Origin: a virus
Reading direction: 5' to 3' (one strand)
DNA: 64,000 nt
Virus record (IMG/VR): IMGVR_UViG_3300009183_008543
Coordinates: 64,001-128,000 of that record
The notes beneath the pieces were generated by a model. The model was not told the origin of the DNA. It made no database searches and was given only the letters and a program-made list of their open reading frames with translations. This document shows positions 2,699 to 38,068 of the stretch, in pieces. The position numbers and the translations under genes were made by a program. Every line of letters starts with the position of its first letter. The first letter of the stretch is position 1.

Positions 2699-3256
2699 TC
2701 ATGATTTGGAAAATATACTACAAATCATTTTTGAGCCATCAAATTTTGGTGCAATTTCCACTTGACTTTCTTTAGCTAAACCATCGATCAACTTTTGCAT
2801 CAAAATAATTCCACCTTCACGATGATTCATTTCCCTGCCTTTGAATTTTATTACAAACTGCACCTTATAACCATCTTCAAGAAACTTTCTTGCCTGACTA
2901 AGCTTTGTTTCAATATCTCCACACGCAATTGCTGGACGCAATCTAATTTCTTTATACTGAACAGTTGCTTCTCTTTGCTTTTTTGCCGCCTCTTTTTCCT
3001 TCAGCTTCTTTTCATATTTAAATTTTCCATAATCCATTATTTTACATATAGGTGGAGATGTATTTGCAACTACTTCGACTAAATCTAAACCAGCTTCATC
3101 GGCAATTTTTCTGGCATAGTCTGTATTTACGATTCCAAGCTGTTCATCTCCATTTGAAAGTCTAACTTGTGGTACTTTTATTTGAAAATTTATTCTTAAC
3201 TCACCGGGCTTTAAAAAATTGTTATTGTCTGGTCTTCGATAATTCGAATGATACAT
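2699..3256 (-). CDS. infC: Translation initiation factor IF-3
   Basis: RINFQIKVPQVRL, GLDLVEV, PPICKIMDYGKFKYE, KEIRLRP, KFKGRE; ATG start overlaps the upstream TAA (TAATG). Confidence 0.96.
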   Translation of the reverse strand: MYHSNYRRPDNNNFLKPGELRINFQIKVPQVRLSNGDEQLGIVNTDYARKIADEAGLDLVEVVANTSPPICKIMDYGKFKYEKKLKEKEAAKKQREATVQYKEIRLRPAIACGDIETKLSQARKFLEDGYKVQFVIKFKGREMNHREGGIILMQKLIDGLAKESQVEIAPKFDGSKMICSIFSKS

Positions 3257-16966: not shown

Positions 16967-19684
16967 TTATTCCTCTAAACACTTTTCAAATTGTTTCAAA
17001 ACTTCATCATCCGTTTGATATTTTTCATCATCAGAGGCAGGGTTTTTCAACACAATAACCCTAAAATCTAACTCCTTAGTTGGATATTTCTGTTGCCATC
17101 TTTTGTTTGGATCTCTCAGATTCCTTTCTAATGAATACCCATTAAATCCTCCAGATGGCGGAGAAAGCCTCACTCTAAGTAAGTTATCTTTCTTTAATTC
17201 TTCTTCCCATCTAAAAACATCTTCTTCCCAAAAGAATATTCTGTTTTTTTCTCCCATAGCATCTTCGGCTTCTATAGAGATATAATCTTTTCCATTTTTG
17301 GTTTTGTTTTTTTTTGTAGACAAAACTTTAATCTCGACAGGAACAATGCAATTTTCATGTTCCCGCAAAATTTGAAATGTATACCCCTTAAAATCAGAGC
17401 TTTTCTCCAAGTCATGTTCCCATGCAAATCCATAATATTTCAACTCACAAGATGAAACGCTTCTCAATTCTTTGGCAAATGTTTTATCTATCTGATGATC
17501 ATCGGAATTGAAATCAACAAGTTTTGGCAAATCAAAAACCTTAGATTCATCAAACTTTTTAATCGCCCTTTGTCTTCTTGCCCATATTTTTTTCAATTCT
17601 TTTAACTTATTGTAAGTTTTCTTGACCAACATTTTTTTATAAAATCTTTCAGTCTGAACTTCTACAAAGTCATCAGTGCCTTTGACCTTAATATATTCAA
17701 CCTCAATTCTTCTTTCTCCAGTAGTACTTTCGACAATTTTTTCAGTTTCTATGATTTCATCAATATCATATTTTTTCCATTCTGGATCATCGAAAACATT
17801 ATCGCCAACCAAATCAGTTAACTTTCTAGATTCTCCAACACAAATTTTAGAAAAATCTTCTTCGTAATTTTCCATGCCGTCTATAAATCTTTTTCTCTTG
17901 TCCTCTATTTTTTTAACAGCAGATTTATAATGTTCGTAAAATTTCCAAAGCGTAATTGGATCAGCATCTTTGAAGCAACGCAATCCAACAAGTGCTTTTA
18001 ATATGCTAGCATCTGTTCCAAACTTAAAAAGAAAATCTTCAAAATTTGCATATGGCTGATTATCAACAATTTTTTTCGCTGGTATTTCTCCTACGCCTTT
18101 AATGTTTGACAATCCATAATAGATAACATCATCAACAAGAGAAAAGGTTTCTTTAGACTTATTTATATCGACCTTTTCCATCTCAACATCATGCCGTCTT
18201 GCCTCTATCTTGTAGTCCTTTATTTTATCGCTCAATGTTTCGCAGCTAAGAACAGCAGCGTAAAATTCTTGAGGATGATGAGCCTTTAGATATAATAATC
18301 GAGAAGAAACATAGGTATAAGCAACGGAATGACTCATATTGAAGCCATATTCTGCGAAAGATTTTATCTGTTCCCACAAGCTCTGAACTTCTTCCTGAGT
18401 AGCATCTAGATTTTTTTGTCCATTTTCAATAAACATAATTTCATATTTCTTAAAAGCTTCTGCCTTCTTTTTAGAAATAGCTTTTCTTACAACTTCACAA
18501 TCTCTTAAAGGAATTTCACCAACAATATTTAAAATTTTCATAATCTGTTCTTGAAAAACCATAACTCCATATGTGTTTCCAAGAATAGGCTCAATCAATG
18601 GATGTAAGGTGTATTCTTCTTCTTCTTTTTTTCTTTTCGTATATCTTTCATGCATTAACATGCCAAGAGGACCGGGGCGATACAAAGCCGTATATGCAAC
18701 TAAATCTTCAAATCTATCAACACCACCAGCTTTTACCAATCTTCTTATGCCTTCTGAATCAAATTGAAATATGCATTTCAAATCACCTTCATTTGCCATA
18801 GCCAAAGATTTTTGATCATTTCTCCAAGAAGAAACATCTGTCCAATCAGAGTCATCATTGTTAGCACATATGCTTTTTATATTTTTTCTTTTTTTGACCA
18901 ATTCGCAACATGTAGATATTTGTTTTAAATTAGAAATTACAAGCAAATCGAATTTCACCAAACCTACTGGTTGTAAGTCTTGACCATTAAGACCTTCCAC
19001 CCAAGCAGATGCTTGCGGATTATCTTTTCTTTTTACTAATGGAACCATATCGGACAAAGGAACTGAACTTATAATCAAACCTCCAGCATGTTGACCCATA
19101 CCTCTATTTCTATTGATTAACTTGTGTGCTGCCGCAGTTGCTTCGGGATGATCTTCACAATATTTTTTCAATTTTGGATACAATTCCATGGCAGATTCCC
19201 ATGTCATAACATTTCCATCTTCATCTTTTGAATCAAGATTCTTGGTAAGTTCAAGTATTTCTTCTCTAGGATTGTCGTGAACCCGTGCCATATCAATCAA
19301 GGCACTCTTCATTCCGAAGGTTGTATAGTTGCTAATATTACAAACATATTCTTCACCAAAAGTTTCTAAAGCCCACTTGTTTTTTAAATAATCACGAACT
19401 TCAGACAAATAATCCACATCAATATCTGGCATATCGCCTTGGACAAATTTTGGATCAACATCGACATTAAAATCATCACATATACCAAGAAGCCAAGGAA
19501 CAATGATATTGTTTGTATTTTTAAATTTATTTTTCTCGCTAAATAATTTCAAAAAATATTCAGCTTTTCCTTGAACATCTATTTCTCGAAGCTCCCACTC
19601 AAGCCTTTTGCGATATTTTTCTCCAAGATTTCTTTTGTCGAAAACATGCCACAAACCTTTTTCTAATTTTTGAAAAGCATTCAT
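16967..19684 (-). CDS. dnaE: DNA polymerase III alpha, C-terminal subunit (palm/thumb/fingers/HhH/OB) of a split DnaE
   Basis: MPDIDVD, HAGGL, GLVKFDLL, IFQF, ALYRPGP, YGVMVFQEQ, YGFNMSH, GLSNIKGVG; no PHP domain; GGAG RBS before ATG 19684. Confidence 0.95.
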   Translation of the reverse strand: MNAFQKLEKGLWHVFDKRNLGEKYRKRLEWELREIDVQGKAEYFLKLFSEKNKFKNTNNIIVPWLLGICDDFNVDVDPKFVQGDMPDIDVDYLSEVRDYLKNKWALETFGEEYVCNISNYTTFGMKSALIDMARVHDNPREEILELTKNLDSKDEDGNVMTWESAMELYPKLKKYCEDHPEATAAAHKLINRNRGMGQHAGGLIISSVPLSDMVPLVKRKDNPQASAWVEGLNGQDLQPVGLVKFDLLVISNLKQISTCCELVKKRKNIKSICANNDDSDWTDVSSWRNDQKSLAMANEGDLKCIFQFDSEGIRRLVKAGGVDRFEDLVAYTALYRPGPLGMLMHERYTKRKKEEEEYTLHPLIEPILGNTYGVMVFQEQIMKILNIVGEIPLRDCEVVRKAISKKKAEAFKKYEIMFIENGQKNLDATQEEVQSLWEQIKSFAEYGFNMSHSVAYTYVSSRLLYLKAHHPQEFYAAVLSCETLSDKIKDYKIEARRHDVEMEKVDINKSKETFSLVDDVIYYGLSNIKGVGEIPAKKIVDNQPYANFEDFLFKFGTDASILKALVGLRCFKDADPITLWKFYEHYKSAVKKIEDKRKRFIDGMENYEEDFSKICVGESRKLTDLVGDNVFDDPEWKKYDIDEIIETEKIVESTTGERRIEVEYIKVKGTDDFVEVQTERFYKKMLVKKTYNKLKELKKIWARRQRAIKKFDESKVFDLPKLVDFNSDDHQIDKTFAKELRSVSSCELKYYGFAWEHDLEKSSDFKGYTFQILREHENCIVPVEIKVLSTKKNKTKNGKDYISIEAEDAMGEKNRIFFWEEDVFRWEEELKKDNLLRVRLSPPSGGFNGYSLERNLRDPNKRWQQKYPTKELDFRVIVLKNPASDDEKYQTDDEVLKQFEKCLEE

Positions 19685-19758
19685 AAGTAACTCCAAATAA
19701 AATGAATTAATATTGTATCACGAAATCTAAATAAATCTAGTCAACAAAAGGAGCATAT

Positions 19759-27000: not shown

Positions 27001-30000
27001 GATGAGACTTGCAAAGACGGAGCTTGCACGGGTTGCCCTTCTCCATGTGCCGAAGACGAATCGTGCTGCGAAGGAGGAACGACATGCTGCAAGGTCTGCT
27101 GTAATGATGGGTGTTGTGCGGATACCGATCATTGCGGAGAAGGTGGTGCATGCACTCCATGCGAATGTACCGCTGGACAAACCTGCTGCGGTCCTAATTG
27201 TTGCGATCCGGGAAAAGAATGCTGTGGTTCTGGAAGTAGTGCAACATGTTGCACCGGAGATCAATACTGCGATGGAACTGGACACTGCGCATCATGCAAC
27301 CCAGTATGCTACCCGAACGAAACATGCTGCGGTGCGTCTGGATGTATAGCAAACAAGTGTGGCGACTGTCCTAATTCGTGTCCAGAAGGAATAGTTTGCT
27401 GCGGTCTTCCTCACCACGAGGTGTGTTGCGGCGAAGGTCAAACTTGTGTCGATAATAAATGTTACGGATGTACGCCTCCTTGTTCGGAAAGTCAAGATTG
27501 CTGCGATGAGGTGTGTACCGAACTTGGAACCGACACAGATTGTACTGGTTGCGGTGCAGCTTGCGGAGAAGGAACAAAATGTTGCGGTGGCTCATGCATA
27601 GATGTGATGGATGATGTGAACAATTGTGGTGGTTGCGGTGTCGTGTGCGAGGAAGATGGTGCAACTCCTCTTTGCTGCGATGGAACTCCGACAGCAAATG
27701 GAACGAATGAAAATTGCTTGAGTTGCGGAGACACAGCCGATCCAGACAATGCGACAAACCCTACATCATGCTGTCCTAAAGCAGTTGTTGTTGCTGGCGC
27801 TCCAGACACCTCGACTTTCTTTGTTACCGCTACAAACAGTGACGACAAGAATTGCGGTGGTTGCGGAAATGTTGCTGACACATCGCCACAAGTGCAAGAA
27901 AAATGCTGTGCGGGTGAAATCGTTAGCCTTTTGACTGATCCAGACAACTGTGGAGGGTGTGGCGTTAGGGTTGTTGATCCTATGAGTTGCTGTCCAAGTT
28001 GGGGTCCGCCAAATCAGTTTGGCGATCTACCAACACCAACCTCTGGTCCAGTAAACACACAAACAGACAACGACCATTGCGGCGGTTGCAACATCCCATG
28101 CAATCCAATAGAAACTGGTGATGACTGCCCACCTCCCGGCGCTCCACCAACGACAAAATGCAAGGATGGCACATGTGTGCCATGCGGAACATGCAAGCTT
28201 CCGACAGAACAACAACAAGCACAATTGTTGGGATCTCAACCAACTGTATGGGGGTCACACACGACCATACCATGCACCTATGACGGATGTCCTATGCCGG
28301 TAACCGATCCGCCAACTCCTGCCCCTCCGGGGAAAACATGCTTCGGTGGCTGTGACTACAAAGCGGTAGGAAATGTTGGAAACCTGTCATGGGAACTGGT
28401 TGGTTGCGAATGCTACGACTCTTGCACACTTCCAGAATGCAACGCCTCAAATCCACATGCCACTCCATGTCCAAGTGTTGGAACCTGTTCTGGAGAAGGA
28501 CCTTGCGGCGGATGCCTTTATGACGACTATGACCATCCTTCTGCATACAAATGCTTCGCGCCATGGGGTCATGATACTGTTAGCTGCGGGAGTCTCTATA
28601 ACTATAGTAGTACATTTGGCTATTGCTGTACGAAAGACGCAAATCATCCAAATGGCGGAGTTCTATGTCTTAGTGGCAGTTGTTCAGGTGCTGCGGGAGA
28701 CTGCGAACCTTGCGGCGGATCATGTGCCGCAGGACTTACATGTTGCGGGGTTTTTCCGAATGATGTGTGTTTGAACCTGAAAACGGATGAAAGTCATTGC
28801 GGATCATGTACGAATGTTTGTGCCGCAGGAGAGACATGCTGTAATAGCTCATGTAAAAATACCAACACAGACAATAACAATTGTGGCGGTTGCGGTATAA
28901 AATGCAGTGGAGTTTCGGAATGTTGCAATGGCAGCTGCAAAGTTCTAAACACTCCAACTAATTGTGGTGCTTGCGGAATAGTATGTACTGTCCTTGAACC
29001 ACTCTGTTGCAACAATAACTGCACACCGTCTGATGAATTCAACTGCGGAGGGTGCGGAAGAACATGTGATGCTGGTGAAAAATGTTGTGATGGTGAATGC
29101 ACAGAGGTGATGGGCGATGACGAATCTAACTGCGGTGATTGTGGCTTTACTTGTGCTTCTAGTGGAACTTGCTGCTCTGGCGAATGTATCGAAAACCAAT
29201 GCGGAACATGTCCTACTGCATGTACCGAAGGTCAGGGATGTTGTGGTACGCCTCCAAATCTAACTTGCACCGATCTTGGAACAGACGAAAACTGTATCAG
29301 TTGTGGCAATGCTTGCGCTGCAGGAACGAAATGTTGCTTTGATGGAGTTGAAAACTTATGCATATCAGTAATGGGTGCTGATAAAAATAACTGTGGCGAT
29401 TGTAACATAATTTGTGAAAATAATGAACGATGTGAAGACGGTGTATGCATAAATTTAAGTGAAGGGTGTGATCCGGAATGTGTTGAGGGAGAAGAATGTT
29501 GCGAAGGAACTGCCTGTTGTAGTCTGCCAGAATTTCAATGTTGCTCTGGCTCATGTACTGCCGTTTTCTCTTTCCAAACAGATAGTTCCAACTGCGGAAG
29601 TTGTGGAAACGCTTGTGCTGCTGGCGAGCAATGTTGCAATGGCGATTGTATTGCCACTAGCTCTTTCCAAACAGATGAATCTAATTGCGGAACTTGTGGT
29701 AACGCTTGTTCCGGAAGCCAAACTTGTTGCTCTGGCTCATGTATCGCCACTAGCTCTCTCCAAACAGATGAAGCAAACTGCGGAACTTGCGGAAACGCTT
29801 GTGGTGCTGGTGAAACATGTTGCTCTGGTGTTTGTAAAGCACTTCAAACAGATGAAGCTAATTGCGGAACTTGCGGAAACGCTTGTGGTGCTGGTCAAGA
29901 ATGTTGTAGTGGTGTTTGCAAAGCCGTACAAACTGATAGTTCCAACTGCGGAACTTGCGGAAACGCTTGTTCCGGAAGCCAAACATGTTGCTCTGGATCA

Positions 30001-31977
30001 TGTATCGCCACTAGCTCTCTCCAAACAGATGAAGCAAACTGCGGAACTTGCGGAAACACTTGTTCCGGAAGCCAAACATGTTGCTCTGGATCATGTATCG
30101 CCACTAGCTCTCTCCAAACAGATGAAGCAAACTGCGGAACTTGCGGAAACGCTTGTGCTGCTGGTGAACTATGTTGTTCTGGTGTTTGCAAAGCCGTACA
30201 AACAGATGAAGCTAATTGCGGAACTTGCGGAAACGCTTGTGCTGCTGGCGAACTATGTTGTTCTGGTGTTTGCAAAGCCGTACAAACAGATGAAGCTAAT
30301 TGCGGAACTTGCGGAAACGCTTGTTCCGGAAGCCAAACTTGCTGCTCTGGATCATGTATCGCCACTATCTCTCTCCAAACAGATGAAGCAAACTGCGGAA
30401 CTTGCGGAAACACTTGTTCCGGAAGCCAAACATGTTGCTCTGGCTCATGTATCGCCACTAGCTCTCTCCAAACAGATGAAGCAAACTGCGGAACTTGTGG
30501 TAACGCCTGTAGTGCTGGCGAACTATGTTGTGGTGGTGTTTGTAAAATCGTACAAATAGATGAAGCTAACTGCGGAACTTGTGGTAACACTTGTGGTCTT
30601 GGTCAAGAATGTTGTAGTGGTGTTTGTAAATCATTACAAACAGATGAATTTAATTGCGGAACTTGCGGAAACACTTGTGGTGCTGGCGAACTATGTTGTT
30701 CTGGTGTTTGCAAAACCGTACAAACAGATGTAATAAACTGCGGAACTTGTGGTAACACTTGTGGTCTTGGTCAAGAATGTTGTAGTGGTGTTTGCACAGT
30801 ATTTCAAATAGATGAAGACAATTGCGGAAGTTGTGGAAACGCTTGTGCTGCTGGAGAAACTTGTTGTAATAGCGTTTGCACAGTATTACAAACAGATGAA
30901 GGTAATTGCGGAATTTGCGGAAACATGTGTGGTGCTGGTCAAGAATGTTGCTCTGGTGTTTGTAAATCAGTACAAACAGATGAAGCTAATTGCGGAACTT
31001 GTGGAACTGTATGTGGTGCTGGTCAAGAATGTTGCTCTGGTGTTTGCAAATCAATACAAACAGATGAAGAAAATTGTGGAACATGTGGAACTGCATGTGC
31101 TTCTGGCTACACATGTTGCTCTGGTGTTTGTAGAAACACAGCAACCGATCTCAGCAATTGTGGAACATGCGGAAGCTCTTGTAGCGGAACATGTTGCAAC
31201 GGCTTTTGCAAAGCGACATATGAGGATGAATTAAATTGTGGTGATTGCGGAATAGAATGTGCTGTTGGCGAAACATGTTGCTATAGCATCCTTTTGAACA
31301 CTGGAGTTTGCAAAGCCGTACTAACAGATGAAGCTAATTGTGGAACTTGTGGAAACACTTGTGCTGCTGGTTACACATGTTGCTCTGGTGTCTGCAAAGC
31401 ACTTCAAACAGATGAAGCTAATTGCGGAACTTGCGGAAGTGTATGTTCTGCTGGCTACACATGTTGTGATGGTGTCTGCAAAGCACTTCAAACAGATGAA
31501 GCAAACTGTGGAACTTGCGGAAACGCTTGTGCTGCTGGAGAAACTTGTTGCTCTGGTGTTTGTGCAAATACAGAAACAAGTTCATCTAATTGTGGATCTT
31601 GCGGACACGCTTGTGCTGCTGGAGAAACTTGCGAAGAAGGAATTTGCTCTCTGCCTCCACTAACAATAAAATTAGTTTTCCGTGCTTTCGCATGTGCAAG
31701 TAATTTTTCAAATCTTTCAAGTGAGCTTTCTGCTGGATCTAGAAGTGTTAGCTTCACAATCACTGTCAGTGGAACTACTTTTGCCAGTGGTTCTGTTTCA
31801 AACATTGGACCCGGAGGAGTTGCAGCAACCTTAGCATCAATTACGATTCCAACAGGAACATCATTTAATATAAATATAAGTGGATATGCTGGATCTGCAA
31901 TTATTGGTAGTACTAGAGCATCTGGTCAACTGACTTATACTGGTGCTGTTAAAACTGCAGATAATAATGCATGTTAA
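24013..31977 (+). CDS. Giant (2654 aa) cysteine-rich repeat protein, Stig1/MXAN_6577-type repeats; possible virion fibre
   Basis: Dozens of DxxNCGxCGxxCxxGxxCCxGxC units; Cys-poor, Ser/Thr/Gly-rich C-terminal ~105 aa; GGAG RBS. Confidence 0.85.
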   Translation: MIDPKLVENWNIIFALADKACGHFATYEAIVLVPRPCTGGSSAYWTLGTSCPDGCTSSPPSELPTNPPCDPNYPDNGTENDIIGCCGGIVEVECTGTCCNCGGVQCEPSETCCDNVCVDLQTDHDHCGGCPIVCEPSESCKNGVCKGACASSNCSWTWSEGCQADCAYVLLDGVYVQNQFCTEGSNCICPAAPAVTESSPLYVYISCVGNPRPSGVWSQTSTCPQGCTCPEEAPTTNGTTNGQVITHECVSCSPPCGEGQDCCGGECKNIYEDSNNCDGCGNVCPEATPTCCNGECCVSNNCCSVDGTNTCIDVMNDPNHCGDCITFCSGPETTTPQKCCHGECKFTETDNENCGSCDFPCPVGYTCCFGVCKELYGDDRLNCGDCGKTCPVGEFCKDGNCVDPCTLEECSYTWDAQTCTFMYNNPNGYKICSGTAVMKWVPTGPPSDPDSITGTCPGRWDTVVPCEYSDNCGCINGYGFEQTIGPCWEYTQECYCGQRNDVITPCGAIFPVLDPVIGWAGGTWEQLTDCDGCPKPVDPPAIPACMGQTYSFNCAGSWIYRPCPSCVCPINEPLREGTPNEKVSSPCKNCDPACGANQKCCNHVCKNILTDVRNCGDCGRDCGSAAGTACCRGTCVNTLTEELYCGGCNTVCAWSETCCNGFCKDTHTDPANCGSCGHPCAAGEVCCNSFCVNTNTDRNNCGSCPFVCPNADKCIDGRCVPCDPPCLEAGTACCNNSCIDILSDENNCGGCNIPCAGKCCNGSCVLDLNTMYNCGDCGIACPQMINQINLWQCCNGQCKNLKTDPENCGFCGRVCQEPPGDTFKVPKCFLGNCAEPECVCLGGETPGPDDVVFVSTCLGNTISCEGSCYFENVGGSWVLHEEPGGTGFSGSCGKEPDYTYCVDDKYACVGDIYYCVKPIEGQDMPTYCIPKPSFDPLAQALIGSYIGAENCAAGCSGDGSCPDGCANGLTCCNTECVDTQTDSANCGGCGGGPCASDETCKDGACTGCPSPCAEDESCCEGGTTCCKVCCNDGCCADTDHCGEGGACTPCECTAGQTCCGPNCCDPGKECCGSGSSATCCTGDQYCDGTGHCASCNPVCYPNETCCGASGCIANKCGDCPNSCPEGIVCCGLPHHEVCCGEGQTCVDNKCYGCTPPCSESQDCCDEVCTELGTDTDCTGCGAACGEGTKCCGGSCIDVMDDVNNCGGCGVVCEEDGATPLCCDGTPTANGTNENCLSCGDTADPDNATNPTSCCPKAVVVAGAPDTSTFFVTATNSDDKNCGGCGNVADTSPQVQEKCCAGEIVSLLTDPDNCGGCGVRVVDPMSCCPSWGPPNQFGDLPTPTSGPVNTQTDNDHCGGCNIPCNPIETGDDCPPPGAPPTTKCKDGTCVPCGTCKLPTEQQQAQLLGSQPTVWGSHTTIPCTYDGCPMPVTDPPTPAPPGKTCFGGCDYKAVGNVGNLSWELVGCECYDSCTLPECNASNPHATPCPSVGTCSGEGPCGGCLYDDYDHPSAYKCFAPWGHDTVSCGSLYNYSSTFGYCCTKDANHPNGGVLCLSGSCSGAAGDCEPCGGSCAAGLTCCGVFPNDVCLNLKTDESHCGSCTNVCAAGETCCNSSCKNTNTDNNNCGGCGIKCSGVSECCNGSCKVLNTPTNCGACGIVCTVLEPLCCNNNCTPSDEFNCGGCGRTCDAGEKCCDGECTEVMGDDESNCGDCGFTCASSGTCCSGECIENQCGTCPTACTEGQGCCGTPPNLTCTDLGTDENCISCGNACAAGTKCCFDGVENLCISVMGADKNNCGDCNIICENNERCEDGVCINLSEGCDPECVEGEECCEGTACCSLPEFQCCSGSCTAVFSFQTDSSNCGSCGNACAAGEQCCNGDCIATSSFQTDESNCGTCGNACSGSQTCCSGSCIATSSLQTDEANCGTCGNACGAGETCCSGVCKALQTDEANCGTCGNACGAGQECCSGVCKAVQTDSSNCGTCGNACSGSQTCCSGSCIATSSLQTDEANCGTCGNTCSGSQTCCSGSCIATSSLQTDEANCGTCGNACAAGELCCSGVCKAVQTDEANCGTCGNACAAGELCCSGVCKAVQTDEANCGTCGNACSGSQTCCSGSCIATISLQTDEANCGTCGNTCSGSQTCCSGSCIATSSLQTDEANCGTCGNACSAGELCCGGVCKIVQIDEANCGTCGNTCGLGQECCSGVCKSLQTDEFNCGTCGNTCGAGELCCSGVCKTVQTDVINCGTCGNTCGLGQECCSGVCTVFQIDEDNCGSCGNACAAGETCCNSVCTVLQTDEGNCGICGNMCGAGQECCSGVCKSVQTDEANCGTCGTVCGAGQECCSGVCKSIQTDEENCGTCGTACASGYTCCSGVCRNTATDLSNCGTCGSSCSGTCCNGFCKATYEDELNCGDCGIECAVGETCCYSILLNTGVCKAVLTDEANCGTCGNTCAAGYTCCSGVCKALQTDEANCGTCGSVCSAGYTCCDGVCKALQTDEANCGTCGNACAAGETCCSGVCANTETSSSNCGSCGHACAAGETCEEGICSLPPLTIKLVFRAFACASNFSNLSSELSAGSRSVSFTITVSGTTFASGSVSNIGPGGVAATLASITIPTGTSFNINISGYAGSAIIGSTRASGQLTYTGAVKTADNNAC
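29572..31640 (+). repeat. Near-identical coding tandem array of 84-bp and 93-bp units
   Basis: CAAACAGATGAAGCWAAYTGCGGAACTTGCGGAAAC recurs; 28-aa and 31-aa peptide variants. Confidence 0.9.
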
Positions 31978-32011
31978 AAAAACAGGCTTGAAAATCAAGC
32001 CTGTTTTTTTT
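31976..32011. terminator. Bidirectional intrinsic terminator
   Basis: AAAAAAACAGGCTTGA-AAA-TCAAGCCTGTTTTTTTT between convergent genes. Confidence 0.85.
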
Positions 32012-32030
32012 CTTTAATTTATAATTTTTT

Positions 32031-32333
32031 CTATTCTTTGTAGGCTACCCATCGGTTACGAACAAATAAAAGATTTGCAAAAAACCCGCAAAAGGCAGAA
32101 ATGAGATTTCCCGCAAACGGAACATATAGTTCGCCTACTGGATTAAGCACGAATGAAATTCCCAATGAAAACCAAAAACTGCTGCATTCATGGCAGAGCA
32201 TTGGAACATTAACATACGGTATCTTGGCTACCAAGTTTCTAAAAGGTCGTGCAACATCGGTATCAGACCAAGCGTAAGCGACACCAAGACATGTGACCAA
32301 ATAAATCAAAAACATCATAGGAAATATACCCAC
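32031..32333 (-). CDS. Small membrane protein with CxxC (DUF1360-like)
   Basis: Three hydrophobic segments; RPFR and LCHECSSFW. Confidence 0.6.
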   Translation of the reverse strand: MGIFPMMFLIYLVTCLGVAYAWSDTDVARPFRNLVAKIPYVNVPMLCHECSSFWFSLGISFVLNPVGELYVPFAGNLISAFCGFFANLLFVRNRWVAYKE

Positions 32334-32734
32334 ATATAGTCAAATTCTCGAACAACAGAGAAACTTCTGAATGTTTTTCCAACAATAGTCTTGTTGAAAT
32401 TAGCCCAAGCTTCATCACCAAGCTGAACCTTGAATACTTTGCCACCAATAGCATTGTTTACTCTTTTTAGCCTAATAGCTTCGAGTTCTTTGACTATCGC
32501 AGCCTTGTCCTTGTAATACTTTTCCAAGATATTCGGATCAGTAGTCACTTTATCTGAAAAGAACTTGCCAACCTTACCTCTGCATGAGCAGTTTGGGTTG
32601 GTCTTTAATGTTGTTAGGTCGGCAAGAATATCTGGAAATTCCGCCTTTAGTTCAGCGAATGAACTTTCGTCCTTGATGATCATATAGATGAGATCTGGCA
32701 TCGTGCCAAGATCTACAGTGATTGTAGTTTCCAT
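32315..32734 (-). CDS. Hypothetical protein with CxC motif
   Basis: TNPNCSCRGK; overlaps the membrane-protein gene. Confidence 0.7.
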   Translation of the reverse strand: METTITVDLGTMPDLIYMIIKDESSFAELKAEFPDILADLTTLKTNPNCSCRGKVGKFFSDKVTTDPNILEKYYKDKAAIVKELEAIRLKRVNNAIGGKVFKVQLGDEAWANFNKTIVGKTFRSFSVVREFDYMWVYFL

Positions 32735-32785
32735 AAAATTAATATAGTTTTATTGTTTTATTTTTTTGATTTTTAAAAATATTTT

Positions 32786-34148
32786 TTACAAATCAAAACA
32801 AATAGATCTACCGCCTCTAGCCTCAGACATGAATCGACTAAACAAAAGACCTTCATATACTGGATCTACATCAGTAATTCCAAGACAATAGCAAATTAAA
32901 GAACCACAAGCACTTCCCCTTCCGGGTCCAACAGCTTGAGTTCCATCGCCACCTATATTTTCTCTGCACCACCTTCTTGCTTCATCAGTCATCATCTTTT
33001 GAATAAGAAAATATGTACTAAAACCTTTACGAGTTATAAGGCTCAACTCTTCAATTATTCTATTTTTATACTCTGTAGTCATTGGCAAATTACGATGTTT
33101 AAATCCTCTCAAGACTTCATCCTTAAGCCTTTGGTCACAATCTGGAAATATAGGTAGTTTCAGACTTCTATCTAATTCGACACCTTTTGCTTTACGACAA
33201 ATCTCTACTGTATTTTTTTTAGCTTCGCAAAAAATTTCATAAGGAATAATATCTTTATAATCACTCAGCCACTTTTCATTAAGTTCTTCCTCAGATTTCA
33301 TCCATAGATTAGCATCCTGCAATTCGAAGAAATCCTGCATTGAATCTTCTTTCATTGCCCTTTGAATTTCTTTTAATGTTCTGTTGGTCTGAACCATCAA
33401 CATAAGTCTTTGCAAGTGACTATCTTCTTTACGGCAATAATGACAATCTTGCGTAAGAATAATCTTCAATCCAAATTTCTGCTTTGCTTTAACAATAAAA
33501 GCGTCATAAGGTTTTTGTTTAACAAAATCTAAAAGCATAATTTCAAGCAGATAATTTTCTTTACCAAACATCTGAATGTATCGTTCTATCATTTGAAATC
33601 CAGCTTCTTCTCCGCCAGCATCAAATGCTCTGCCAACTTCGCTGTTATAGCAACAACTTGTAAAAAATAAGCCTTCTTTATGCTTCTCAAGTTGTTCGTA
33701 ATTTACTCTTGGCTTTCTATAAAATCCTTTCGTCCAACCCCAAGATGTCAAACGAACAAGATTTTTATATCCAGTTTCATTGTATGCTATGGCTAATAAG
33801 TGTGGACTTGCTCTCAGTTCCAATAATTCACTTGGAGAGAGAGATTCAGAAAATTTTTGCATGTCTGACAAAGAAGAGGATTGCGGTTGCAATCTATTTA
33901 CATAAAGTTCCGCAGCGAATATGGGAGAAAGTTTATTTTTCCCATATTTATCACATATCTTTTCGCATGCTTTAATTTGTCTGGGAACTGCTCCCAACAT
34001 GCCATGATCACTAATTGTAAGAAAATTTTGATTTATTTCTGTAGCACGAACCGAATATTCTTCGCATGTTCCAAGCCCATCGAGGACGGAAAAATCGGAG
34101 TAACTAATGAAGGTGGAGATGTTCAAAACCAACAATCTCCACCTTCAT
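32786..34148 (-). CDS. dnaE: DNA polymerase III alpha, N-terminal (PHP) subunit of a split DnaE, interrupted by a 7-nt coding gap at 34100-34106
   Basis: AAGGAG then ATG 34148 gives MKVEIVGFEHLHLH*; the +1 frame continues SDFSVLDG, SDHG, AELY, HLL, SCC, QDCHY, GPGRGS, GITDVDP, LLFSRF and ends before PDID. Confidence 0.9.
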
Positions 34149-34157
34149 TGTTACTCC
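34097..34157. promoter_or_regulatory. 23-bp inverted repeat (one bulged base) covering the dnaE-N SD, start codon, HLHLH codons and coding gap
   Basis: mRNA GGAGUAACAAUGAAGGUGGAGAU-N14-AUCUCCACCUUCAUU(A)GUUACUCC. Confidence 0.9.
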
Positions 34158-34168
34158 TTTCGTAAATG

Positions 34169-34963
34169 TCATTGTTCAATCTCTTGTTTAGTTTGAAGCC
34201 AAATTAAAAATTCTTGCTTATCGTACTTTGCATTTTTACGACAATTCTCAGAAGCTGAAATTGGTCGTAAATTCTCCAGACAATTAATCAAAGACAAATC
34301 GTAAATCTTATGATCTGAAAACGCCTTTATTGGGAAAATATGGTCAATATGCCACTTTCCATTTTTTACCTTTTCATAATTCTCATGATTGATTATATGA
34401 TTTTGCAATTCTTTATAATCATAGCCAAGTAAAGCTGAAGTTTTAGACTTTTTTACTCTGCCAGTAACAGCCAAACTCATACTCAACAACTTATACGATC
34501 TCTGTCGAAATATCAAGTCCATTTTAAATTTCTCTCGATCATCAACCCATTCATAATGATTTTCTCCAGATCGTTTGGCAATTCCGCAATCCCAACATCT
34601 TTTACCTGTTCTGAAATTATTCCAAGAGATCTTTGCTTCTTTGCCACAAGAACAAATATATCGCATATTCTTGGAAGACTTTTCGTATTGATCCAAAAGC
34701 ATACAACCAACGGCTGCGAATTCAGATTTTATTTTTTCATGAGAATAAGAGAATCGTTCGCTTATTTTGCGAGAACCGCAATTTTTACATCTATTGCCAG
34801 ATTTGAAACTATAAAAAACAATTTTAGATTCGTTTCCACAAGAACAACGATACCTCATTGGTGTGCGAGCATTGATATAAGTATCTTCTAATAATTTGCA
34901 ACCATTTTTTAAGAAGAAACTTTGAACGAATTGATAGGTAAGTCTTTGACTTGAATATTTCAT
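34169..34963 (-). CDS. Free-standing HNH (homing-type) endonuclease with tandem zinc-ribbon repeats
   Basis: Two GCxLL...YxCSCG...RCxxCG repeats; WHIDHIFP...LENLRPI...NCRKN; GGAGG RBS before ATG 34963. Confidence 0.88.
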   Translation of the reverse strand: MKYSSQRLTYQFVQSFFLKNGCKLLEDTYINARTPMRYRCSCGNESKIVFYSFKSGNRCKNCGSRKISERFSYSHEKIKSEFAAVGCMLLDQYEKSSKNMRYICSCGKEAKISWNNFRTGKRCWDCGIAKRSGENHYEWVDDREKFKMDLIFRQRSYKLLSMSLAVTGRVKKSKTSALLGYDYKELQNHIINHENYEKVKNGKWHIDHIFPIKAFSDHKIYDLSLINCLENLRPISASENCRKNAKYDKQEFLIWLQTKQEIEQ

Positions 34964-34994
34964 AAAACCTCCAATATATTTAGTTGGAGGCTTC
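34964..34994 (-). promoter_or_regulatory. RBS-sequestering hairpin with late-promoter-like CTAAATA in its loop
   Basis: GAAGCCTCCAA-CTAAATATA-TTGGAGGTTTT-ATG. Confidence 0.75.
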
Positions 34995-35036
34995 ACAATT
35001 ATTTCAATCTTTTAGACGGTTCTGCAGAATTAAAAG

Positions 35037-35258
35037 TTATTTCTTAATTGATGCCTTTGTAGGTTCTTCAGACTGTATTTTTTTCCATTTTTCAAATTCA
35101 TCAGATAAAGCTTGAGCTTGAGCTTCAAGTTCTTTTAATTTTACCTGTGTTTTTTCATAATACTCTTTTAATTGTTGTTTAATCTGTTTTTTCTCATTGT
35201 GAATTTCAGAAACTCGCTGAGAAAAAGTGACAAATTCATCTGATAATAGCCAATCCAT
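35037..35258 (-). CDS. Small coiled-coil protein
   Basis: 73 aa with heptad pattern and AAGG RBS. Confidence 0.65.
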   Translation of the reverse strand: MDWLLSDEFVTFSQRVSEIHNEKKQIKQQLKEYYEKTQVKLKELEAQAQALSDEFEKWKKIQSEEPTKASIKK

Positions 35259-35269
35259 AATTTTTTCCT

Positions 35270-36847
35270 TTATTTCTTTTCTCGAATTCTTACATTAGCA
35301 GGATCATTATCGAAACATTCGAATACGACATCAGTACCATCATGACCTTTGGTGGAAAGAAAAACATCATTTCCCCAAATGAATCTTAGACCAACCAATA
35401 CATCTCGAACATAAGGCTCATGAAGCGGTCTGCCTTCAAATGTATGCTCAAGCATCAGATAGCCCTTACCACGATAATTAGGCTCTGTTAAACGAATATC
35501 TGGCAGTCCTCCATTTACATGGCGAGCCATCAACAATTTTTTTATCTTATTGTAATCATGACTTTCAAGAATCGTCTCTCCGCTTGGATAACGCTTATGT
35601 TCAAAGTATTCTTGTTCTCGACAGAAATCCTCAGTAAAAAATTCATGTATTAAAGTTAGATCATCGTAATACTTTCTAACTTCAAAAATCTTTTCCTTAC
35701 CAAGCATTGCCTTGGTATCCCATTTTTCTTTCTTACTAGAATTTGTGCAATCATCCCATTCATTGCCGAATTGACCTTTATCCCAACGATTGCGAATATC
35801 GGACAAAAGATTATATCCTAGCTTATAAGGATTGGTGCTATATTTTCCACCAAGAACACCCATCTTGTGTGCAGCGTATTCAATGATTCCAGAATCATGA
35901 GTCTTTTGACCCAAGCCGACATAACCCTGTTCTGCCATGATAACATGGTCAGTCATAGAAGCCCAGCCCTCGTTTAATACTTTGGTTTGTCTCTGTGGGA
36001 AAAAATAAATTGATTCTTCATAGATCATAGACATGATATCTTGTTGCCAAGGCTTAAGTGGAGCATTATCACGCAAAAATCCAAATATATCTTTAACTGG
36101 TTCTATAAAAAATCCAAGTTCCTCTGCAAGATCTTTATCTTTTACCTTTTCATTTTCTCTTTCTTTGAACTCTTTTGTGTTGATGTAATTATCCATATAG
36201 AAGCGATCACTATCAACTTTAAGTCTTTTTGGAAATCTATAATTTCTTTTATCAATAATATTTCTATCTTTGATAACTTTTTGATGCCAAGCCGATGCTC
36301 CATCAACCAAAGTATCGATGCGAAGTAAATAATCAAGAAATTCAGTAACCTTTTCCTTGCCCCATCTAGCCATATATTTTTTAATACGGCTACTATGATT
36401 TGCCATGTTGTTCAACATGTTTGTATCAGTAGCAGAAAAGTGAATATTATTTTTAAAGAAATCATTATGACCAGTGGCGTGAGCGATAACAGTCAGATGA
36501 TCCAATAATGTGTTGCTATCTAAGCAATAGATGTAACATGGCGATGTATTGATTACCATCTCATATATTTTATGCATTTGATTTTCATATCCACGCTGCA
36601 ATTCTTCATATTGCATGCCAAATGACCAATGTGGATATCGTACTGGAAAACCACCATACGCTGCTACTTCGGATATTTCATCGTAGGTAAGAAGCTGCAC
36701 TACGGTTGGATAAAAGTCCAAACCCCAATCTTTACAAACATTCAAAATTATTTGAGCATATTCTTTTAATTGTTTTGGAAGCTGAACTCCGGGAATTGTG
36801 TTATCGCCAATAAGAAGTGAAGAACCATGCATGAACTTATTAGACAT
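35270..36847 (-). CDS. spoVR: SpoVR/YcgB family protein
   Basis: GGFPVRYPHWSFG, KIYEMVIN, AHATGHNDFFKNN, YFFPQRQTKVLNEGWAS, NPYKLG. Confidence 0.95.
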   Translation of the reverse strand: MSNKFMHGSSLLIGDNTIPGVQLPKQLKEYAQIILNVCKDWGLDFYPTVVQLLTYDEISEVAAYGGFPVRYPHWSFGMQYEELQRGYENQMHKIYEMVINTSPCYIYCLDSNTLLDHLTVIAHATGHNDFFKNNIHFSATDTNMLNNMANHSSRIKKYMARWGKEKVTEFLDYLLRIDTLVDGASAWHQKVIKDRNIIDKRNYRFPKRLKVDSDRFYMDNYINTKEFKERENEKVKDKDLAEELGFFIEPVKDIFGFLRDNAPLKPWQQDIMSMIYEESIYFFPQRQTKVLNEGWASMTDHVIMAEQGYVGLGQKTHDSGIIEYAAHKMGVLGGKYSTNPYKLGYNLLSDIRNRWDKGQFGNEWDDCTNSSKKEKWDTKAMLGKEKIFEVRKYYDDLTLIHEFFTEDFCREQEYFEHKRYPSGETILESHDYNKIKKLLMARHVNGGLPDIRLTEPNYRGKGYLMLEHTFEGRPLHEPYVRDVLVGLRFIWGNDVFLSTKGHDGTDVVFECFDNDPANVRIREKK

Positions 36848-36865
36848 CTTATAAATCCTTAAATT

Positions 36866-38062
36866 TTACTTTGATTTTTGAGTACCCATCAAACTTTTAA
36901 TTGCATCTAAAATTTGATTATTTCTAATTTCATCATCACGCATATTCGGATCATTAGGATTTCCATTTCCAAAGTTAATTTCGGTGGTACGAATATTATT
37001 CTTATCAAGCTCTCCACTTTCCAACGCCTTATCGACATGATACTTAACACTATTGGTATAGTTGTAAGGCAAAATTTGTGTGATCCCGACTAAATTAATA
37101 TCCTTTTCTGGAAATGATTCTTTTAATGTGTTGATAAATACTTGATTATCATCGCCCCAATTATCTCCATCCGTAAAGTAAAAAACATAAATGTTCCACT
37201 TTTGCGGAGGGTATCTATTCTCAAATTGCTTTTGAATAAATTTCAAAGCAGAAGAACAAGTTGTTCCTCCACCATATCGGTAGTTATAAAACTTTTCTTC
37301 ATCTACTTCCATGGCAAGAGAATCGTGCCACACAAAAAGTCGATCAACTCTTTTGTAAAATTGTCTAATCCAAACATCAATCCACCAAGCCATATCTGAG
37401 ACGATCTCGCATTTAGCTTGATCCATCGATCCAGATCCATCACGGGCATAAATGATCAAAGCATTGCTAGAAGGAACTTTAACTTCTTTATATTGCCTAT
37501 AACGCTTGTCACGCTTAATTGGCTTGATTGTCTTCATGGGCATGCTAAGACCCGGAACTATTTCAAAATTATTAGCAGTTCCATCTGCACATTGCCTTTT
37601 TAAAGCTTCGATAAAAGTTCTTCTATTATGACGCAAAGATTCGGGACCAACCAAAGATATATTATTATATTTGATTTTTACTTCATCGAATGTATCATTT
37701 ACTTTTGGCTTTAAATTTGGCAATTCCAGTTCATCTTGCATGAACTTCAATACAGTTTCCAAATCAAGACTTACGGTGATTCCTTCACCTTCATCCTGAG
37801 TTGCTCCATTGCCCTTTCCTTTTTTACCCTTATCAATGACATCGCCATCCTTGCCTTTACCTCTGCCGATGCCATTGCCGTTATCACCATAAAGAATTTG
37901 AGGAATATCAATTTTTGGAATTGTGATAGAAATTTTACCTCGTTTGCCACGAGATTTTACTATCTGTCCAGATTTGATAAACTTTTTAAGTGCTTTACGA
38001 AGTTTGCCTGAGACAACATCTATAAAGTCTTTATGATCTTCTTCAATTCTGCGTGGACACAT
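36866..38062 (-). CDS. yeaH: YeaH/YhbH (DUF444) vWA-like protein
   Basis: DELELPNLKPK, DGSGSM (MIDAS), GGGTTCSSA, RYPPQKWNIYVFYFTDGDNW. Confidence 0.93.
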   Translation of the reverse strand: MCPRRIEEDHKDFIDVVSGKLRKALKKFIKSGQIVKSRGKRGKISITIPKIDIPQILYGDNGNGIGRGKGKDGDVIDKGKKGKGNGATQDEGEGITVSLDLETVLKFMQDELELPNLKPKVNDTFDEVKIKYNNISLVGPESLRHNRRTFIEALKRQCADGTANNFEIVPGLSMPMKTIKPIKRDKRYRQYKEVKVPSSNALIIYARDGSGSMDQAKCEIVSDMAWWIDVWIRQFYKRVDRLFVWHDSLAMEVDEEKFYNYRYGGGTTCSSALKFIQKQFENRYPPQKWNIYVFYFTDGDNWGDDNQVFINTLKESFPEKDINLVGITQILPYNYTNSVKYHVDKALESGELDKNNIRTTEINFGNGNPNDPNMRDDEIRNNQILDAIKSLMGTQKSK

Positions 38063-38068
38063 GTTCTA

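Follow-up and report, generated by a model that had tools for sequence, protein, structure and literature searches.

How can a virus make a complete replicative polymerase from a gene in which a stop codon closes the reading frame in the middle of a metal-binding motif, and in which the rest of the motif follows seven nucleotides (nt) later in a different frame? The question is raised by dnaE-N, the gene for the N-terminal part of a split DnaE polymerase, in a 64,000-nt stretch of viral DNA (positions 64,001 to 128,000 of IMG/VR record IMGVR_UViG_3300009183_008543). This whole stretch is called the window herein, and coordinates refer to it unless a related locus is named. The record comprises 136 kb, is estimated to be about 28% complete, has a G+C content of 33.5% and was found in freshwater/lake metagenomes; its source is an uncultured lake jumbo phage.

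We suggest herein that the 7 nt in dnaE-N are a programmed coding gap, which ribosomes probably bypass from a CAU codon over a UAG stop codon, driven by the refolding of a hairpin located upstream. An earlier note, made from the letters of this DNA alone, had proposed a short bypassed gap in an endonuclease-linked cassette that is separate from T4 gene 60 and its nuclease MobA, and this proposal gives the best fit to the comparative data described below.

The interrupted reading frame

The leader, the 7-nt block, the stop in frame 0 and the continuation in the +1 frame read on the minus strand exactly as the earlier note had described them. The sequence AAAGGAG (34160-34154) is followed by five nucleotides and an ATG (34148-34146), which opens a run of 14 codons (ATG AAG GTG GAG ATT GTT GGT TTT GAA CAT CTC CAC CTT CAT) with the last His codon, CAT, at 34109-34107. 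Frame 0 from this ATG translates as MKVEIVGFEHLHLH and then stops. Past the gap, the sequence resumes with TCC GAT TTT TCC GTC CTC GAT GGG (resume codon TCC at 34099-34097), and this +1 frame gives SDFSVLDGLGTCEEY plus 422 further residues and is open to a stop at 32786. The parts of the gene are as follows, L008 being the nearest uninterrupted relative.

34172..34149, minus strand: 5' extension MTFTKGVT, apparently cassette-borne, with the Shine-Dalgarno (SD)-like AAAGGAG at 34160-34154; homology to L008 resumes only at ATG 34148
34148..34107, minus strand: frame-0 leader MKVEIVGFEHLHLH (a translation), which holds the first two metal-binding histidines of the PHP domain and is identical to L008 residues 1-14
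34106..34100, minus strand: putative 7-nt coding gap TAGTTAC, with UAG at 34106-34104 and UAC (34102-34100) directly 5' of the resume codon
34099..32786, minus strand: dnaE-N main frame, 437 codons, covering the remainder of PHP and positions 1-98 of the Pol III alpha NTPase domain

Pfam recognized PHP (7.1e-30) and DNA_pol3_alpha (1e-23; 98 of 260 profile positions) in the downstream frame. Because the PHP match begins only at profile position 6, the H-x-H element is absent from this frame. The other PHP ligand motifs, which had been claimed to be intact, are all visible in the downstream translation (DHG, ELY, HLL, SCC and DCH). A second in-frame ATG (34172-34170) lies farther upstream, where it overlaps the TGA of a nuclease gene in the sequence ATGA; from there a 22-codon leader, MTFTKGVTMKVEIVGFEHLHLH, runs to the same stop. 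An upstream in-frame ATG is also present in those gap-bearing relatives whose sequences were inspected.

An alternative genetic code was considered and rejected: TAG closes 15 of 108 long open reading frames (ORFs), and decoding TAG as an amino acid would lead on into the wrong frame. ARAGORN found no tRNA or tmRNA gene in the 136-kb record.

The block is not peculiar to one assembly. The earlier note had called for a check on template switching and assembly error, and contigs (rather than raw reads) from other samples and years kept the 7 nt. Contigs of two other DNA runs, X2 (2017) and X3 (2023), cross 34090-34165 with the 7 nt in place and no insertion or deletion; the X3 contig has 13 substitutions over 1 kb relative to the window and therefore represents an independent strain. 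An identical block occurs in five IMG/VR contigs, each with a different metagenome identifier. An exact 36-nt query had no match in IMG/VR, where near-identical loci carry one synonymous change (GAC for GAT).

Evidence that the two frames are joined

A protein-guided scan of IMG/VR gave 60 related loci (54-99% identity), each of which was classed at PHP motif I. The motif is uninterrupted in 25 loci, none of which has the hairpin described below. In 24 loci (60-99% protein identity), a block led by a stop codon stands right after HLHLH. The alignment of 5' ends for which the earlier note had asked shows that the gap recurs and is not unique to the window assembly. The block is 5 nt long in one locus, 6 nt in one, 7 nt in ten (plus the window) and 8 nt in 12 (including L062). 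Its 7-nt variants in relatives are TAGTTAT, TAGCTAC and TAGCTAT. When the sequences are arranged in 15 leader types, the block is stop-led in all 15, with UAG in 14 and UGA in one; in the window, the stop is directly preceded by CAU.

That skipping 7 nt restores PHP motif I is borne out by L008 (85% identity). This relative starts MKVEIVGFEHLHLHSDFSVLDGLGTCEEY, which equals the 14 leader residues of the window followed by 15 resumed residues and matches the joined sequence predicted earlier. The spacing between HLHLH and [ST]DxSxLDG is constant in 25 of 25 uninterrupted IMG/VR loci.

Ratios of nonsynonymous to synonymous divergence (dN/dS) between gap-bearing genes were 0.076 (window and L006), 0.068 (L049 and L054) and 0.076 (L053 and L054), at dS values of 0.5-1.1. 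Additional values were 0.156 for L047 and L054 and 0.045 for L050 and L054, L050 being uninterrupted. Pairs with saturated dS were dropped (window-L010, L006-L010, window-L008, L011-L013 and L017-L025), as was L039-L056, which is out of register through an intein. As judged from these values, gap-bearing dnaE-N is under strong purifying selection and is not decaying.

The leader itself behaves as coding sequence. All 15 leader types preserve the peptide x-V-[EK]-I-[VT]-G-[FY]-E-H-L-H-L-H, and in the loop of the hairpin, where there is no pairing constraint, 17 of the 21 minority cells in the alignment of leader types fall at third positions of frame-0 codons. The other two frames of the leader contain stops in most of the types. 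The pattern of conservation indicates that the leader is both translated and under selection in frame 0.

In nine related gap-bearing loci (L019, L036, L039, L053, L054 and L056 among them), the downstream frame contains no ATG, GTG or TTG from the nearest upstream stop to the LDG codons. Since the downstream frame has no start codon, ordinary initiation cannot yield the PHP domain in those nine loci. Read together, the comparative data indicate that recoding is required and that the gap is old and maintained.

Gap states are interspersed on a DnaE-N tree of 61 rows, obtained by a quick maximum-likelihood search with IQ-TREE; counted over well-supported branches only, the minimum numbers of changes were three for the 7-nt state, five for the 8-nt state and ten for the uninterrupted state. 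For example, L011 (7 nt) is sister to the uninterrupted L013 with a support of 100. Because the states are scattered in this way, hairpin and gap appear to have been gained or lost together repeatedly, and this joint behavior is the strongest argument that both work together.

A hairpin across the start region and the HLHLH codons

The sole hairpin at the window site lies 5' of the gap and overlaps it, and there is none inside the gap. Two nested forms can be drawn.

5' arm 34149-34135, loop 34134-34121, 3' arm 34120-34106, minus strand: conserved inner hairpin with perfect 15-nt arms
34157..34097, minus strand: extended 23-bp hairpin, in which 34157-34150 pairs with 34104-34097 (outer 8 bp) and A 34105 is bulged

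The 5' arm consists of the start codon and the K-V-E-I codons, while the 3' arm consists of the H-L-H-L-H codons and the first T of TAG. In the outer stem, the GGAG side of AAAGGAG pairs with the gap and the resume codon. Folding of 121 nt gave a minimum free energy (MFE) of -45.7 kcal/mol (z = -6.1), and none of 200 shuffled sequences was equally stable. A script found about 12 distinct perfect hairpins (at least 12 bp, loop up to 30 nt) in the 136-kb record, most of them terminator-like by eye.

The association of this structure with the gap was followed in 62-nt segments ending at the last His codon. All 25 short-gap sources (the 24 IMG/VR loci and the window) form a perfect stem of 12-14 bp between the start region and the HLHLH codons, with MFE values of -18.3 to -25.9 kcal/mol, versus 0 of 26 sources without a gap (-4.5 to -17.1 kcal/mol). 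Alignment of the 15 leader types gave 14 distinct rows, each of which has all 12 inner pairs. Compensatory changes occur at three stem pairs (CG/AU, GC/AU and AU/GC/GU). Paired cells make up 90.8% of the stem, versus 36-56% after sliding of the partner, and the covariation score of 0.213 (shuffled mean 0.099) was reached by 0 of 500 shuffles, tests that are inflated by the relatedness of the loci. The amino acids are the same in uninterrupted relatives; codon choice alone differs in the hairpin arms. The 3' arm of the window, for example, uses CTC, which accounts for 91 of the 2741 Leu codons of the genome, and CAC (162, versus 543 CAT).

The 23-bp hairpin of the earlier note is present in the window, but only its inner 12-14 bp are conserved and co-varying. 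The outer 8 bp belong to the window's own lineage, and the outer pairing is absent from L006, L017 and L039; the outer stem was therefore rejected as a general feature.

In 12 of 15 leader types, as read by eye, AAAGGAG (one mismatch allowed) is found at a constant distance from the stem. Its GGA codon shows little variation, in contrast to the Gly codon in the loop. This element may be the SD of an internal start, or a stem-flanking SD as proposed for the terminase gaps of phage Hau3. No compensating relation between the SD-to-stem distance and the gap length was evident by eye in the relatives' sequences.

A 15-nt copy of the hairpin 5' arm was seen in L010 (1656-1680), inside the SpoVR gene, from where it might base-pair with the dnaE 3' arm at a distance of 400 nt. 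It is probably a chance product of the codons for H-E-G-G-D.

Other interruptions of the same motif in related loci

Several other kinds of interruption were found at or near this site. In L045, L051 and L055, a Leu-TAA-Leu sequence stands between L and D of S-V-L-D-G (CTT TAA CTA, CTC TAA CTT and CTT TAA CTT, respectively). These are six-base inserts at about 3010-3030, in which the take-off and landing codons match. They have a stem of their own, formed by the start region (back to a GTG start) and the codons immediately 5' to the take-off codon. This stem arises from the synonymous TCG GTG, where the uninterrupted L050 reads TCC GTC.

Longer inserts of 40-47 nt with a GC-rich stem-loop follow [ST]-D in L012, L015, L024 and L048 (about 3000-3070). 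L062 (2931-3004) contains two gaps in one gene: 8 nt after HLHLH, and then CTC TAA with a perfect 15-bp stem that includes the take-off codon. Candidate landing sites are near-matches of GAY to GAA or AAC in the long gaps, and a matched CTC-to-CTT pair, leaving five extra residues, in the second gap of L062.

Four of the 60 loci (L040, L041, L042 and L057) carry a group I intron of about 225 nt. Two loci were compared with Rfam RF00028, which matched L040 (2767-2992, 90.7 bits) and L057 (2769-2996, 102.4 bits). The introns of these two, 226-228 nt in length, sit after the T/S-D-F-S-L codons of the dnaE PHP motif, and L041 and L042 have the same translations as L040 across the intron region. 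When the same tool was applied to window 32000-36000, no Rfam family, including group I introns, reached its threshold. The closest GenBank phage, LR756511 (595 kb, 54%), has an unsplit and uninterrupted DnaE of 1179 amino acids (aa).

Two further observations concern the same neighborhood. Intein-like inserts lie further along dnaE-N in L034, L056 and L060, and probably in L036, which has an 839-aa ORF in place of the usual one of about 435 aa; those of L034 and L056 (about 2900-3000) end in ...VHN followed by C, before ELYVNPLQ. Phage tmRNA genes (RF00023, 100-130 bits) are located 1-3 kb downstream of dnaE-N in four relatives (L015, 5501-5853; L048, 6216-6579; L040, 6703-7061; L012, 4959-5302).

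A putative endonuclease gene upstream of the gap

The gene directly upstream of dnaE-N encodes a putative nuclease.

34996..34169, minus strand: putative free-standing HNH/EndoVII-type endonuclease gene; the longest ORF starts at GTG 34996, a start at ATG 34963 gives 264 aa, and the stop is TGA 34171-34169

The distance of 20 nt between this stop and ATG 34148, as given in the earlier note, is correct. The product matched the PHROG profiles 'HNH endonuclease' (phrog_559, 1.8e-17) and 'endonuclease VII' (phrog_1035, 3.1e-8). Pfam gave no match at E values up to 10, and no match was found among PDB sequences. The motif WH[IVL]DHIFP..N.L.NL.P..N..KN is kept in five nuclease homologues beside dnaE in other loci, and H-x-D-H...N...N is common to the nuclease and its same-place homologues in L034, L036, L055 and L057. 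In tblastn searches, the nuclease matched phage genes annotated as HNH, endonuclease VII or homing endonuclease; no Escherichia phage is named among the matches listed (15 of 142 matching phage records). AlphaFold2 run on a 5-row alignment gave a mean pLDDT of 62, with values below 50 for the nuclease part. The 136-kb record contains only one copy of the gene.

The nuclease gene and the 24-nt extension appear to be an insertion, because homology to L008 breaks off near 35125 and is regained precisely at ATG 34148. The gene is absent at the same place from L008 and L010, with flanking homology kept, and L010 has the gap and hairpin and no nuclease gene. Among the 15 short-gap types, the nuclease is intact in three (the window, L036 and, as a different phrog_559 protein, L062) and present as a remnant in three (L006/7, L044 and L054). 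Nuclease genes or remnants also lie beside the Leu-TAA-Leu loci L045 and L055 and the 47-nt gap of L048, and a remnant in L051 was seen by eye only, in translation. In L057, a homologue of the window nuclease (53% identity) is located directly upstream of dnaE, which carries a 228-nt group I intron without an ORF in the same PHP motif.

The best reading of these arrangements is that the gap, the hairpin-tuned codons and the 5' extension with AAAGGAG constitute a cassette that entered with, and outlives, a free-standing HNH-type homing endonuclease. By analogy with the gene 60 gap and MobA, the interrupted motif-I sequence probably protects the carrier genome from the nuclease.

A model of ribosomal bypass

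How might ribosomes pass such a gap? Translation would start at ATG 34148, or at the in-frame ATG 34172 overlapping the nuclease stop; the ATGA overlap at 34172-34169 makes translational coupling to the HNH gene more plausible. The ribosome would then reach the His codon CAU (34109-34107) with UAG, a stop codon read by release factor 1 (RF1), in its A site. At this point, the 3' arm of the hairpin (the HLHLH codons) would be inside the ribosome, while the 5' arm and the loop would already be outside. Counted back from the take-off codon, the loop's 5' side is reached after about 25 nt, near the 26 nt of gene 60.

Refolding of the hairpin at the mRNA exit would pull the message forward by one nucleotide per base pair formed. 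The peptidyl-tRNA-His would leave CAU and settle about 7 nt downstream, possibly on UAC, with one G-U and two Watson-Crick pairs. A slide of 5-8 nt would place the [ST] codon in the A site, and in the window translation would resume at UCC. The product would be a DnaE-N of 451 aa (459 aa from the upstream ATG) with PHP motif I intact.

The 5' arm is itself the initiation region, so that refolding would also deny a second ribosome access to the leader during the hop. The arm would pair only when no second ribosome sits there and, once paired, would block initiation, which would create a lone-ribosome condition.

The lengths of the blocks argue for bypass. Gaps of 5, 6, 7 and 8 nt span all three frame classes, so no single type of frameshift explains them, and no slippery motif occurs in any short block among the relatives. 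One mechanism must serve all of the blocks, and it would therefore be a bypass that ignores frame; otherwise, four different mechanisms would be needed.

Several points weigh against this reading. First, take-off CAU and landing UAC are unmatched codons. The idea that tRNA-His re-pairs at UAC is plausible in that 12 of 15 leader types (by eye) carry NAY directly 5' of the resume codon, but it is not general, as the other three types have CUU, CUU and GUC, which share little or nothing with the His codon; a matched take-off/landing pair was met only in the Leu-UAA-Leu loci L045, L051 and L055. Second, a stem of -20 to -45 kcal/mol over a start codon should depress initiation, and three TTG codons in the window loop could start a product without H-x-H. 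Third, the variation among 7-nt gaps is also synonymous in the +1 frame (AGY UAY, Ser-Tyr). Fourth, kinship among the loci means that the count of 25 versus 0 for the stem overstates the number of independent events, and the tree of gap states comes from a quick search only. Fifth, the co-occurrence of gap and HNH gene, to which the earlier note had pointed, holds for the six of 15 types with an intact or remnant nuclease, but is otherwise loose: no nuclease was detected in nine of 15, and L034 has a nuclease gene yet an uninterrupted motif. Finally, in the RNA run X20, contigs with 100% identity cover only 33610-33878 (dnaE-N) and 34332-34482 (nuclease gene), with DNA carry-over possible; they stop short of the gap. 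Runs X21-X24 contained next to none of the sampled words of this phage.

A wider and more tentative interpretation is also possible. The loci may form an allelic series of ribosome-hop elements in lake jumbo phage dnaE, comprising the stop-led 5-, 6-, 7- and 8-nt gaps, the Leu-stop-Leu hops and the 40-47-nt hairpin gaps, in which the hop is set by the start-region hairpin and not by re-pairing. Refolding behind the first ribosome would pull the mRNA a fixed few nucleotides and shut the start site, leaving a lone ribosome at the gap. Bypass, introns and inteins might then be interchangeable immunity devices, which would guard against homing endonucleases that target one sequence.

Alternative explanations

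A programmed +1 frameshift at CAU-UAG could account for part of the data. In this event, the ribosome would stall on the stop codon and read AGU, and Ser-Tyr would be added between HLHLH and SDFS. Stop codons that occupy the A site are well-known stimulators of +1 shifts, as in prfB. The 7 nt equal two codons plus one, the +1 path is free of stops, and all four 7-nt variants encode Ser-Tyr (AGT/AGC and TAC/TAT); since their variation (T/C at position 4 and C/T at position 7) is synonymous in the +1 frame, the shift stays live for the 7-nt class. In addition, the distant relative LR756511 tolerates one extra residue in that protein loop. On the contrary, tRNA-His is unable to re-pair on AUU. 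The prfB shift relies on a re-pairing P-site codon and an SD about 3 nt upstream, whereas the CUU CAU here is without an SD-like element 3 nt away, and the site is thus not of the prfB type. Blocks of 5, 6 and 8 nt would need +2 or -1 shifts or readthrough, and the shifted-frame residues of other block lengths vary (V-Y, A-N, V-D, V-L, A-V, V-N and G-Y). The exact motif spacing kept in 25 of 25 uninterrupted IMG/VR loci also disagrees with two added residues. We consider a +1 shift doubtful.

It is unlikely that the two frames are not joined at all, such that the leader is a regulatory upstream ORF (uORF) of 14 or 22 codons and the polymerase starts at the loop TTG 34135 without H-x-H. A TTG-started ORF (32786..34135) exists, the loop offers three TTG codons, and some DnaE PHP domains are catalytically inactive. 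A regulatory uORF, however, has no reason to preserve E-H-L-H-L-H with drift at third positions only, the downstream frame retains the other PHP ligand motifs, and at least nine related gap-bearing loci have no start codon in the downstream frame before the LDG codons.

Removal of the 7 nt before translation, by cutting and rejoining of the mRNA or by loss from a subpopulation of the DNA, appears improbable. A long perfect stem ending at the gap could act as a recognition element, the group I introns at the same motif in relatives show that RNA-level solutions occur at this spot, and minority DNA variants would be invisible in contigs. Nevertheless, no intron class with a length of 5-8 nt is known, and no Rfam family matches the element, the best being a generic hairpin below threshold (24 bits versus a gathering score of 63). 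Gaps that are stop-led in 15 of 15 types, and matched Leu-stop-Leu codons, matter to a ribosome and not to a nuclease or ligase, and the 7 nt are kept in every DNA contig seen. Because the interruption in the window is far too short for a ribozyme, it would have to be repaired elsewhere, most likely on the ribosome.

That a frameshift mutation, or an assembly error induced by the hairpin, has simply broken a decaying dnaE is scarcely credible: a stop-bearing, frame-breaking insertion does resemble a pseudogene when one sequence is viewed alone, and hairpins can provoke template switching, but the same block occurs in assemblies from different samples and years, related blocks persist through saturated synonymous divergence with dN/dS near 0.07, the 437 codons contain no further frame break, and dnaE-C is the only other PF07733 match in the record (of which the estimated completeness is low), so that the artefact and pseudogene readings are effectively excluded.

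Comparison with known recoding systems

The nearest parallel to the proposed bypass is T4 gene 60. In that system, pairing of the exiting mRNA was proposed as the driver of forward bypassing, a distance of 26 nt was noted for the 5' stem-loop, and a lone ribosome favors bypassing, according to the portions of the preprint drawn on here (bioRxiv 10.1101/2024.12.09.627546). A survey of MobA and gene 60 described that in many cases the nuclease has decayed or disappeared and the bypass cassette remains (bioRxiv 10.1101/2022.08.31.505936). As far as these sources describe gene 60, both systems have a non-coding block in an essential replication gene, with flanks that are contiguous in relatives; a take-off codon followed by UAG; an upstream stem-loop of mRNA that is already outside the ribosome; a cassette that adds an N-terminal extension; and a free-standing HNH gene directly upstream. 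In both, many carriers retain the gap with a decayed nuclease gene or none, and the insertions are scattered on the host-gene tree.

The differences are equally clear in the same descriptions. The host gene here is dnaE rather than a topoisomerase gene, and the gaps are 5-8 nt instead of 50 (20 in one clade). The window gap has no internal stem-loop, although its long-gap relatives L048 and L062 do. The take-off and landing codons of the window are unmatched, and its hairpin uses the initiation region as the 5' arm. With a leader of only 14-22 codons, a long nascent-peptide signal is also unlikely here. The main text of the gene 60 survey preprint (bioRxiv 10.1101/2022.08.31.505936) nowhere uses the word 'polymerase'. 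Given its different host gene, a gap that lacks a stem-loop and its unmatched codons, the window element is not a member of the MobA elements, a comparison that concerns the elements and not the nucleases themselves.

Unprogrammed stop-hopping in Escherichia coli, in which the peptidyl-tRNA passes a stop and lands on a similar triplet close by, was reportedly described by Weiss and co-workers in 1987 and in later work. The Leu-UAA-Leu inserts of L045, L051 and L055 have that very form. Stop-hopping is a low-level event without dedicated signals, whereas the loci examined here have a conserved, co-varying hairpin in an essential gene.

The terminase gene of Streptomyces phage Hau3 was described to contain two 10-nt coding gaps after UUA, for which a 5' stem-loop and a flanking internal SD were proposed as a stimulator; mass spectrometry, with a UAA variant in E. 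coli, demonstrated bypass and not a +1 shift (PMC10732093). In the parts of that article used herein, Hau3 resembles the window in that a very short, frame-breaking block lies in an essential phage gene, the flanks are contiguous, and a slow A-site codon stands at the 5' end of the block. The trigger in Hau3 is a rare sense codon tied to host physiology, unlike the stop codon here; those parts mention no endonuclease and only a few natural variants (3 of 100 genes), versus the series of lengths and sequences here. The same article describes many short non-coding inserts ('byps') that are skipped during translation in the mitochondria of Magnusiomyces capitatus (PMC10732093). From that description, the 40-47-nt GC-rich hairpin inserts of L012, L015, L024 and L048 are similar to byps in form, but byps belong to another domain of life and another translation system, and the window gap has no internal hairpin.

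Collaborative homing, in which a free-standing nuclease acts with a group I intron lacking an ORF, was reported for T4 mobE and I-TevIII (PMC2790892) and for F-CphI (PMC6083498). In terms of these accounts, the nuclease and intron of L057 are a like case, and the window has the same layout with a 7-nt gap replacing the intron. Full-text searches of the literature, which reached articles but not supplements, where further cases could be listed, gave no report of a gap or recoding in phage dnaE.

Genome context

Apart from the interruption, DnaE is split in this phage without an intein. The N part (32786-34148) ends SRFMSEARGGRSICFDL, and the C part is located 13 kb away.

19696..16967, minus strand: dnaE-C, 909 aa, the second polymerase half, with PF07733 positions 100-259 at window 18941-19435

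Nearly all of the 60 relatives are split at the same point, after ...SRFMSEARGG; only the distant LR756511 is unsplit. Between the two halves lies a gene for a 2654-aa cysteine-rich repeat protein (24013-31977). Upstream of the cassette, the genes at 35270-40141 appear to include SpoVR-like ones, the SpoVR Pfam matches being those of the homologous L010 ORF.

Implications

Efficient programmed bypassing is known from very few systems, namely T4 gene 60 and its homologues, the Hau3 terminase and one yeast mitochondrion, and the rules of bypassing are largely derived from a single 50-nt element. If the proposed reading of dnaE-N is true, it would add a second, unrelated family of endonuclease-linked bypass elements, located in a replicative polymerase, and would offer dozens of natural variants in length and sequence together with uninterrupted controls. 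Such a series would tell whether short hops require matched landing codons, and whether a hairpin formed by the exiting mRNA alone suffices as the driver. It would also show a role of homing endonucleases in shaping recoding. For annotation, polymerase genes of this kind are now called from the wrong start or as broken genes.

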